Shown here in pieces: positions 17,891 through 20,002 of a stretch of DNA of 64,000 bases. The notes beneath the pieces are model-generated. The model ran no database searches, was not told the DNA's origin, and was given only the letters and a program-made list of their open reading frames with translations. A program made the translations under genes and the position numbers. The stretch is taken from NCBI GenBank assembly GCA_041664245.1, contig JBAYLC010000001.1, forward strand, positions 86,654-150,653, written 5' to 3'. This stretch comes from Minisyncoccota bacterium (GTDB lineage: Bacteria; Patescibacteriota; Minisyncoccia; UBA6257; 2-01-FULL-56-20). Within the stretch, counting starts at the first letter, position 1. Each line of letters starts with the position of its first letter.

Positions 17891-19445
17891 TAGAGGATTT
17901 GATCCTGGTCCAGGATGAACGCTGGCGGCGTGGATAAGGCATGCAAGTCGAACGGATCAAGTTTTGAACTTGTTGTGAAGTTGAGTTGTAGCAATACAAT
18001 TTAGCGGATCAGTTTGGAAGAAGCTTGGTTAGTGGCGAACGAGTTAGTAACACCTTGGTACGTACCCCAAAGCCGGGAATAGCTCATCGAAAGGTGAGGT
18101 AATGCCCGATGGTCTCGCAAGAGTAAAGTCGCAAGACGCTTTGGAATCGGCCTAGGTCCGATCAGCTAGTTGGTAGGGTAATGGCCTACCAAGGCTACGA
18201 CCGGTAGGGGAGGTGAGAGCCTGACCCCCAACGACGAGACTGAGACACGGCTCGTACTCCTACGGGAGGCAGCAGTCGAGAATATTCGACAATGGGCGAA
18301 AGCCTGATCGAGCGACGCCGCGTGCAGGAAGAAGGCCTTCGGGTTGTAAACTGCGGTAGTAGGGGAGGAAATTATTGACAGTACCCTACGGAAAGAGGTG
18401 GGTAACTACGTGCCAGCACCAGCGGTAATACGTAGACCTCAAGCGTTATCCGGATTTATTGGGCGTAAAGAGTGTGTAGGAGGTTTTGTGCGTCTTCGGT
18501 TAAAGCCCACCGCCCAACGGTGGAAGTGCCGAAGATACGACAAGACTAGAGGGGGTTAGAGGTAAGTGGAACGCACGGTGTAGGGGTGAAATCCGTTGAT
18601 ATCGTGCGGAACACCAAAGGCGAAGGCAGCTTACTGGAACCCTCCTGACTCTGAGACACGAAAGCGTGGGGAGCAAAAAGGATTAGATACCCTTGTAGTC
18701 CACGCCGTAAACTATGCAGACTAGCTGTTTCGAGTATCGACCCTCGGAGTGGCGTAGCTAACGCATTAAGTCTGCCGCCTGGGAAGTACGGCCGCAAGGC
18801 TAAAACTCAAAGGAATAGACGGGGACTCGCACAAGCGGTGGAACATGAGGTTTAATTCGACGGTAAACGAGGAACCTTACCAGGGTTTGAAATGCATACT
18901 GAAAGCCGGCTGAAAAGTTGGCCTTCTCACAAGGACTGTATGCACAGGTGCTGCACGGTTGTCGTCAGCTCGTGCTTTGAAGTGTTCCCTTAAGTGGGGT
19001 AACGAGCGCAACCCTTATCTGGTGTTACAAGTGTCACCGGAAACTGCCCAGCCTAAAGTTCAGTAGTTTTTTACTAGTGAATTTCAGGCTGGGAGGAAGG
19101 AGAGGATGACGTCAAATCAGCGTGGCCCTTCGACACCCTGGGCTACACTCATGTTACAATGGCCGGGACAATGGGTTGCCAAGCCGCAAGGCGGAGCCAA
19201 TCCCATCAAACCCGGTCCCAGTTCGGATTGAGGGCTGCAACTCGCCCTCATGAAGCCGGAATCGCTAGTAATCGCGCATCAGCTATGGCGCGGTGAATAC
19301 GTTCTCGAGTCCTGTACTCACTGCCCGTCAAGCCAAGGGAGCCGGTAGGAGGTGAAATTCCACTTTTGTGGAATTAGCCTTAAATCGGTGACATGGGCTA
19401 AGTCGTAACAAGGCACGCGTAGCGGAAGCTGTGCGTGGAACAATT
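17891..19445 (+). rRNA. rrs: 16S ribosomal RNA (no 23S downstream in window)
   Basis: 5' AGAGGATTTGATCCTGGTCCAG. A variant of the 515 primer site (GTGCCAGCACCAGCGGTAATAC). Landmarks AAACTCAAAGGAAT, GCAACGAGCGCAACCC-like, CTGCCCGTCA and AAGTCGTAACAAGG. Helix 45 GGAA loop near 19415-19435. Length about 1.55 kb with no large insertion. The expected CCTCCTT anti-SD is absent after helix 45. Confidence 0.9.
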
Positions 19446-19630
19446 AAACTAACTTTTGAAAAAATCTTTCTGCATAAAGCAGATTGTAAATTAATTCAAA
19501 AGGTTTAGGCCGATCATGTCTCTCTACTCTGAAGCACTGCAAAGTGGATCATGGTAGTGAGACATGCGCATTAATTGGGACAACTAAAAAGCTCTTTGAG
19601 ATTTTCATTTTTTTTGGTAGAATCGGATAA

Positions 19631-20002
19631 ATGGATAAAAAGATCCTAGTAATCGAAGATGATCGGTTTTTGTCATCGCTAATGAAAGCCCGCCTTGAAA
19701 AGGAGGGCTATAAGGTGTCTCAAGCGTTTGACGGAGAAGAAGCCCTAAGCTTATTAAGGCAACAAAAGCCGGATCTAATCGTTATGGATTTAATTATGCC
19801 TAAAGTTTCTGGTTTTGAACTTTTGGAAAATGTTTCGGTTGATCCTCAACTAAACCATATTCCAATTATGATTTTGAGTAACCTCGGGCAGGAAAGTGAC
19901 ATCGAAAAAGTGAAACGTCTTGGGGCGGCTAAATATTTTGTAAAAGTAAAAACTTCCATTGACGAGCTAGTTGCCCACGTCAAAGAAATGTTAAATTTGT
20001 AA
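19631..20002 (+). CDS. single-domain response regulator (CheY-like receiver)
   Basis: VIEDD acidic pocket, phospho-acceptor D in DLIVMDLIMP, and a conserved K near AKYFVK. No output domain. Confidence 0.85.
   Translation: MDKKILVIEDDRFLSSLMKARLEKEGYKVSQAFDGEEALSLLRQQKPDLIVMDLIMPKVSGFELLENVSVDPQLNHIPIMILSNLGQESDIEKVKRLGAAKYFVKVKTSIDELVAHVKEMLNL

Follow-up and report, generated by a model that had tools for sequence, protein, structure and literature searches.

The locus and its 16S rRNA gene

The 16S rRNA gene described here lies in a stretch of 64,000 nucleotides (nt) from a Minisyncoccota bacterium (contig JBAYLC010000001.1), referred to below as the window, and carries a 3′ tail that lacks the CCUCC core of the anti-Shine-Dalgarno (anti-SD) sequence, the ribosomal partner of the Shine-Dalgarno (SD) motif of mRNAs. 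The Rfam bacterial small-subunit model RF00177 matches the gene over its full length (17887-19450 on the forward strand, model positions 1-1533) with 1392 bits, the gathering score being 50. Helix 44 and helix 45 are both intact, and a re-scan of the 3′ part pairs model positions 1521-1533 (GAUcACCUCCUUu) in the alignment with GAACAAUUAAACU at 19438-19450, where the canonical tail GAUCACCUCCUUA is expected after helix 45. CCTCC is absent from the forward strand between 19300 and 19700. The original prediction, made from the letters of the window, had described an intact helix 45 followed by a tail without CCUCC, and both the Rfam alignment and the CCTCC scan to 19700 bear it out; the next coding sequence, which it had placed at 19631, is indeed there and encodes a response regulator (PF00072).

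We consider it about 85% probable that this gene is the genuine, functional 16S rRNA gene of a bacterium of the Parcubacteria/Paceibacteria class, within the Candidate Phyla Radiation (CPR), in whose lineage CCUCC was replaced long ago by an AAUU-type sequence and translation starts are selected independently of SD motifs. The coordinates of the gene, its tail and the surrounding elements are collected in Table 1.

Distribution and conservation of the tail

To gather relatives, we scanned GTDB species, each represented by a single genome, for a 16S pattern with the decoding-centre signature GTACTCACTGCCCGTCA. In the window this signature lies at 19314-19330; E. coli positions 1396 and 1400, almost universally A and C, are both U in it, and it is common to at least 119 species, CCUCC-keeping ones included. 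The scan returned at least 119 species loci, 110 of them with a readable 3′ end, and all are Parcubacteria, Paceibacterota or Patescibacteria metagenome-assembled genomes (MAGs), some bearing third-party titles that are plainly mislabelled (Saccharibacteria, Gammaproteobacteria). The nearest species representative has a 16S rRNA 91% identical to that of the window, and Liptonbacteria and Jorgensenbacteria MAGs are among the nearest 16S relatives.

Tails other than CCUCC were found in 94 of the 110 species, comprising the window-type tail in 44 (CAAUUAAA-type, GGA(U/A)CAAUUAAACUA, with the longer form GGA(U/A)CAAUUAAAC(UA)) and other sequences in 50, mostly GGAUUAAUUC... or GGAUCAAUUACA.... A CACCUCA tail is present in 6/110 and the canonical CACCUCC in 10/110. 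Three chromosome-level MAGs, OY970354.1 (829 kb), OY970382.1 (888 kb) and OY970126.1 (827 kb), carry GGATCAATTAAACTA, and relatives down to approximately 80-90% 16S identity all have a non-CCUCC tail. In a rough neighbour-joining tree of 60 near-full-length 16S sequences, the CCUCC and CCUCA genomes form one clade and all anti-SD-less genomes its sister clade, a pattern consistent with a single ancient replacement and later divergence.

Among the 44 same-tail species, identity ranges from 70 to 100% per position over the 14 nt after helix 45 (G-A-U-C-A-A-U-U-A-A-A-C-U-A) and beyond that drops to about 40%, as in AT-rich random sequence. Of the 94 anti-SD-less species, 85-99% retain the AAUU core. 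The conserved stretch has the length of the canonical 13-nt tail plus one, so the mature 16S 3′ end probably lies at about 19451. Judged by this degree of conservation, the new tail is under purifying selection, and it is probably kept for the structure of the 30S subunit or for maturation of the 3′ end.

A small sister group (L018, L023, L027, L030, L040 and L085) carries CACCUCA followed by UUUAGAGGA. CACCUCA corresponds to an anti-SD decayed by one base and is able to pair, by folding, with a GAGG downstream; the 26 open reading frames (ORFs) in this group are all free of SD-like motifs.

Start sites and SD use

SD use was counted upstream of simple ORF calls (at least 100 amino acids, aa) as GGAG-type 4-mers at positions -18 to -4. 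Such 4-mers precede 7% of window genes; for relatives the share is 0-14% whichever the tail class, the 10 CCUCC-keeping species included, and the rate in the control region is 4-8%. As originally claimed for the highly expressed genes of the window, no GGAG-type motif stands upstream of rpsL, rpsG, fusA, tuf, rpsJ, rplC, rplD, rplW, rplB, rpsS or rplV.

The start sites bear another signature. We defined a -10 box as a TAnnnT hexamer with at least 5/6 matches to TATAAT and measured its distance to the next in-frame ATG. In same-tail relatives the spacing peaks at 6-9 nt, with 58 of 254 genes in the peak against approximately 2.6 per 1-nt bin at 12-39 nt, and for the window the figure is 10 of 59; out-of-frame controls are flat, and the other tail classes show the same 6-9-nt peak. 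Overall, roughly one fifth of genes have a -10 box ending 6-9 nt before the start. The hexamers most enriched at -22 to -2 of 538 ORFs are TATACT (28 observed, 1.6 expected), AAGGAG (20, 1.6), TATAAT (53, 9.7) and TAGAAT (12, 0.8). At the sequence level, leaderless mRNAs are marked by a -10 box placed 6-9 nt ahead of the ATG, as established for Deinococcus and mycobacteria (PMC4007540, PMC3898074).

By these start-site features, 13 of the 66 window genes would be of the leaderless type, among them the response regulator at 19631 (its TG-TAGAAT box stops 7 nt short of the ATG), and a further 15 would have a very short leader, with a -10 box 11-30 nt upstream. Another 16, including rplD, rplW, rplB, rpsS and rplV, are of the coupled type, starting at most 15 nt from the upstream stop and mostly reading ...AAAAAAUAA-AUG, while 5 are SD-like and 17 unclassified. 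We infer from these signatures that initiation in the lineage is SD-independent.

The strong SD-like motifs before 5 of the 66 window genes were only partly anticipated: strong GGAGG had been placed solely at 3.4-10.9 kb, where four such genes do lie, and the fifth, starting at 37843 on the reverse strand, had been missed. All five encode hypothetical proteins, three of which begin with a hydrophobic, signal- or transmembrane-like segment, and of the four searched against Pfam none matched a family, the fifth (82 aa, 37595-37843) having been translated only. Two of them, 4077-4793 and 4965-5675, are tandem paralogs encoding secreted-looking proteins of approximately 237 aa; their identical 45-nt upstream region suggests a recent duplication.

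Strong SD 5-mers (GGAGG, AGGAG, GAGGA) are enriched by position before starts even in anti-SD-less genomes: across the same-tail class they number 52 at -20 to -6 against 7-23 in other bins of 10-16 nt. They lie most often 4-8 nt from the ATG and are distributed among 32 of 94 relatives' loci. SD-led genes exceed the median GC content of their locus by 2.3%, while the others deviate by -0.4% (Mann-Whitney p = 4e-4), and this higher GC points to a possibly foreign origin. On the simplest reading, the SD-led genes may be recent acquisitions that still carry the SD of their donor.

Alternative explanations

The original prediction had left open whether the anti-SD-less rRNA is genuine or the product of a chimeric join, and the pairing of the processing stem, other assemblies, relatives and the gene order in the relative L117 decide for the former. 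A 16S body fused to unrelated sequence at its conserved 3′ end would be in keeping with the breaks that assemblers do make inside this gene: contig k141_1694483 of ENA assembly ERZ27249449 ends at 18647, and Logan contigs of SRR6484324 end at 17920 and start at 19410. At the point where helix 45 passes into the tail, however, no assembly breaks. The ENA contig (covering 18647-30002) and Logan contig 260727 (19410-20467) are both 100% identical to the window through helix 45, tail, trailer and response regulator, and in every assembly the helix 45 typical of the lineage runs on into the tail. Moreover, trailer positions 19574-19595 complement leader positions 17833-17854, which argues against a mis-join near 19440, since foreign sequence would not pair with the 16S gene's own leader. 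The same tail in 43 other species, and the recurrence of the stem boxes and of the downstream response regulator in relatives, make a chimera highly improbable as far as sequence comparison reaches. Relatives with GGATCACCTCCTT directly after helix 45, which had been named in advance as the sign of a mis-join or local error, were seen only in distant lineages, namely the sister clade and 13 metagenome contigs. The latter came from a contig scan for the exact helix 45 of the window followed by the canonical tail GATCACCTCC; their 16S is 70-80% identical to that of the window in 10 of the 13, those that were comparable, and the decoding-centre motif, readable in 5 of the 13, has C1400 in all five. 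We therefore rejected them as contrary evidence, as they stem not from close relatives but from other CPR lineages with the helix 45 sequence in common.

A genuine junction could still belong to a decayed, non-functional copy, with a canonical 16S (GGAUCACCUCC) elsewhere in the genome doing the work. Only 64 kb of the genome are visible, and the residual SD-like motifs would fit if some ribosomes had an anti-SD. This is nonetheless very improbable given the full-length, high-scoring Rfam match with both terminal helices intact, the perfect consensus promoter and processing stem, and a tail kept, unlike in pseudogenes, across species that differ by 10-20% in 16S. CPR genomes typically have one rRNA copy, and each chromosome-level relative gave one signature match, although a second copy lacking the signature would have escaped the scan. 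An anti-SD might also have been displaced downstream, with an insertion separating helix 45 from the true 3′ tail. Insertions are frequent in CPR rRNAs, the relative L094 has CACCUCCU 27 nt after helix 45, and the window trailer has UGGAUCAUGG at 19546-19555. Yet CCTCC is missing as far as 19700, the processing stem already closes at 19574, the trailer reads UGGAUCA and then UGGUAG instead of CCUCC, conservation ends approximately 14 nt after helix 45, and no consistently placed downstream CCUCC occurs among the 44 same-tail species; we give this explanation very little credence.

The tail could instead have become a replacement anti-SD, its AAUUAAAC pairing with a co-evolved A/U-rich motif (UAGUUUAAUUG-like) in the mRNAs. 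Its strong conservation implies some function, and partial complements do occur upstream of a few window genes (GUUUAAUU before rpsJ, UUUAAUU before rpoA). However, at -25 to -1 of 306 same-tail ORFs, tail-complementary and same-sense k-mers number 152 and 164 (5-mers), 44 and 48 (6-mers), and 16 and 14 (7-mers), and the complementary k-mers show neither enrichment nor a positional peak upstream or just downstream of the starts. A de novo motif search yielded only -10 boxes and GGAGG-type motifs, and Amin et al. likewise found no variant SD/anti-SD pairs in 2018 (PMC6107228). No complementary motif was enriched at -5 to -15, and a co-evolved variant pair was rejected as a candidate; we judge a replacement anti-SD improbable. 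It is also doubtful, if somewhat less so, that the conserved tail AAUUAAACUA and the persistent, properly spaced GGAGG reflect a new mode of mRNA or factor recognition, in which GGAGG is read by a partner other than the tail or the tail docks another partner. Plain loss of the anti-SD, with the SD motifs as relics in foreign genes, is the leading idea.

Several points nevertheless weigh against a genuine anti-SD-less 16S with SD-independent starts. The matching assemblies may come from the same or related samples, and a second, canonical 16S copy may possibly lie outside the 64-kb window. The mature 3′ end, the transcription starts and the leaderless status are all read from DNA motifs and simple ORF calls, and the comparison of SD use with the sister clade draws on only 49 ORFs. 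Finally, about 7-8% of genes in anti-SD-less genomes keep a canonical, correctly spaced GGAGG or AAGGAG, which a purely SD-blind model accounts for only as relics.

Transcription unit and other features

The 16S gene has the elements of a complete transcription unit (Table 1). Its likely promoter overlaps a divergent one within 17645-17693, the forward TTGACA-16-TATAAT (12/12) facing the 16S gene and the reverse TTGTCA-16-TATAAT (11/12) facing rpmE (17379-17630, reverse strand). The leader and trailer arms are laid out as a pre-16S processing stem, the usual substrate of RNase III, and the genes for RNase III (rnc, 24294-24983) and nusB (23831-24292) both lie about 4 kb downstream of the 16S gene. 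The 3′ arm ends in GCUCUUUG, which we take to resemble boxA. Across many species the arms are kept in sequence as well as in pairing (GAGUUUUUUAGUUGUCCCAAU / AUUGGGACAACUAAAAAGCUCUUUG), and the leader and trailer boxes recur in approximately 20 relatives.

Between tail and 3′ arm, the trailer folds into two hairpins, and Rfam at E <= 1 gave only chance-level matches in 19451-19640, hence no known RNA in the trailer. In relatives, the conserved tail is followed by a species-specific hairpin, after which often come GUCGAAC and then the conserved stem box. The gene order after the 16S gene (region 17887-20318) is response regulator, then rplS, and in L117 the 16S trailer likewise leads directly into this response-regulator gene (MPEIKKIMVIEDDRF). 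The whole 64-kb window holds no match to large-subunit rRNA, the 16S gene being unlinked to a 23S gene.

Table 1. Positions of the 16S transcription unit and of the residual SD-like motifs in the window
Feature	Position	Strand	Remarks
Sigma-70 promoter TTGACA-16-TATAAT	17666..17693	+	Perfect consensus (12/12); likely 16S promoter, as judged by position
Pre-16S processing stem, 5′ arm	17833..17854	+	AGAGUUUUUUAGUUGUCCCAAU / AGAGTTTTTTAGTTGTCCCAAT; 22 nt, 95% complementary to 19574-19595; cofold
16S rRNA gene, full length	17887..19450	+	RF00177 covariance-model match; no 23S gene after
Helix 45, intact	19414..19437	+	CACGCGUAGC-GGAA-GCUGUGCGUG; 10-bp stem and GGAA loop, Rfam 3′ alignment
3′ tail	19438..19451	+	GAACAAUUAAACUA; AUUAA (19443-19447) at the place of the CCUCC anti-SD core
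Trailer, two hairpins	19453..19566	+	19453-19502 and 19515-19566; fold z = -4.3; species-specific, hypervariable in relatives
Pre-16S processing stem, 3′ arm	19574..19595	+	AUUGGGACAACUAAAAAGCUCU / ATTGGGACAACTAAAAAGCTCT; ends in boxA-like GCUCUUUG
Promoter TTGAGA-16-TG-TAGAAT	19596..19623	+	Ends 7 nt before ATG 19631; leaderless-type spacing
Response-regulator gene	19631..20002	+	PF00072; directly after 16S
AAGGAGG	4065..4071	+	5 nt before ATG 4077; residual SD-like
AAGGAGG	4953..4959	+	Identical copy; before ATG 4965
GAGGAGG	10008..10014	+	Before ATG 10020
AAGGAGG	10505..10511	+	Before ATG 10520
GAGGAGG	37848..37854	-	Before ATG 37843; 82-aa hypothetical protein, 37595-37843

The 16S gene also carries expansions specific to the lineage: an insertion of about 55 nt near the 5′ end (window 17960-18020, where the Rfam alignment skips 55 nt) and a 47-nt hairpin at 19047-19093, with arms at 19047-19067 and 19073-19093. 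The 515F primer site (18409-18430) reads GTGCCAGCACCAGCGGTAATAC, with 2 mismatches to the universal sequence, and is matched by an upstream change, TGGGTAAC; together they would turn the 507/524 pseudoknot pair from C-G into G-C. Standard primers for the V4 region are likely to miss the window organism.

Comparison with known systems

Lim et al. reportedly described bacteria without a consensus anti-SD in 2012. Amin et al. counted 128 of 20,648 taxids, mainly some Bacteroidetes, Mycoplasma and Carsonella, in which the anti-SD is lost (PMC6107228), and on the scale of all bacteria such an rRNA is, as originally stated, very unusual. For Parcubacteria the statement is too strong: CCTCCT was detected in only 48% of them, and the lineages without it overlap the group that lacks uL1 (Tsurumaki et al. 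2022, RNA 28:1041, PMC9297842). The window shares with these uL1-lacking Parcubacteria its lineage, the absence of CCUCCU and a reduced CPR ribosome. Their report covers only the absence of the motif, whereas the conserved tail GAUCAAUUAAACUA, the -10-to-ATG signal and the residual SD genes come from the present analysis.

With E. coli queries, tblastn gave no match to uL1, L11, L10 or bS21 in the window or in the relatives' loci examined, the rplK-rplA-rplJ region lying outside these sequences. In L125/L126, in a region just beyond the right end of the window (21440-22106), S5 (21440-21922) is followed directly by L15 (from 21927) with no uL30 gene between them; the organism of the window thus shows this known reduction of the CPR ribosome.

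Mammalian mitochondrial mRNAs are largely leaderless. The mammalian mitochondrial 12S rRNA also lacks an anti-SD (PMC10582724) and, as a highly reduced organelle rRNA, offers an analogy only. Among bacteria, Chryseobacterium, Elizabethkingia, Riemerella, Blattabacterium, some Mycoplasma and Candidatus Carsonella likewise have a 13-nt tail without CCUCC and no matching SD enriched genome-wide, a trait distributed by clade (PMC6107228). They belong to other phyla, have other tails and generally lack SD motifs, whereas the lineage of the window keeps GGAGG at about 7-8% of genes.

Bacteroidia share SD-independent initiation on most genes and very few strong SDs (Jha et al. 2021, PMC7797042; PMC13000453). 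Their ribosomes, however, keep CCUCC hidden under bS21, bS18 and bS6, while the 16S tail in the window has no CCUCC that could be sequestered; and in F. johnsoniae only rpsU is SD-led, whereas those of the window encode hypothetical accessory proteins. Deinococcus deserti (PMC4007540) and Mycobacterium tuberculosis (PMC3898074) share the -10 box 6-9 nt before the start in a sizeable fraction of genes, with TATACT/TATAAT-type motifs ranking top. Both keep the anti-SD, use SD motifs on leadered genes and have leaderless genes established by transcription start site mapping, whereas the assignment in the window is by sequence statistics alone.

Proposed mechanism and implications

Ribosomes of this lineage would select start codons without SD/anti-SD pairing. 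On first cistrons, a 70S or 30S particle would bind the 5′-terminal AUG of a leaderless or very short-leader mRNA, while internal cistrons, with starts 0-15 nt from the preceding stop at A-rich junctions, would be reached by termination-reinitiation coupling or through a lack of structure at these junctions. Since the sister clade keeps CCUCC and yet uses SD motifs equally rarely, disuse of the SD probably preceded loss of the anti-SD and then released the constraint on the tail. A second constraint may have been lifted as well: Era binds GAUCACCUCC, and its loss would remove that requirement. The era gene is absent in most CPR (PMC10582724), and Paceibacteria lack rplA and mostly lack era (PMC12641178).

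Anti-SD loss in Parcubacteria has already been published, and the organism of the window is a further member of that lineage. The conserved tail, the putative leaderless and coupled start signature, the low SD use in the CCUCC-keeping sister clade and the residual SD genes add details that appear modestly new. Within the library searched, neither the conserved replacement tail nor, for Parcubacteria or any other CPR group, a leaderless signature turned up in a publication; a study of CPR mentions leaderless mRNA only in connection with YchF (PMC12641178).

In practical terms, CPR 16S 3′ ends without CCUCC should not be "corrected" or called mis-assemblies, and gene callers that score SD motifs will favour the few ORFs preceded by GGAGG and may misplace starts in such genomes. 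The residual SD-bearing genes pose a small, testable question, namely whether they are foreign genes or are recognized independently of an anti-SD. The findings also fill in a trait that is published but so far sparsely documented: the sequence that took the place of the anti-SD has itself remained conserved through deep divergences.

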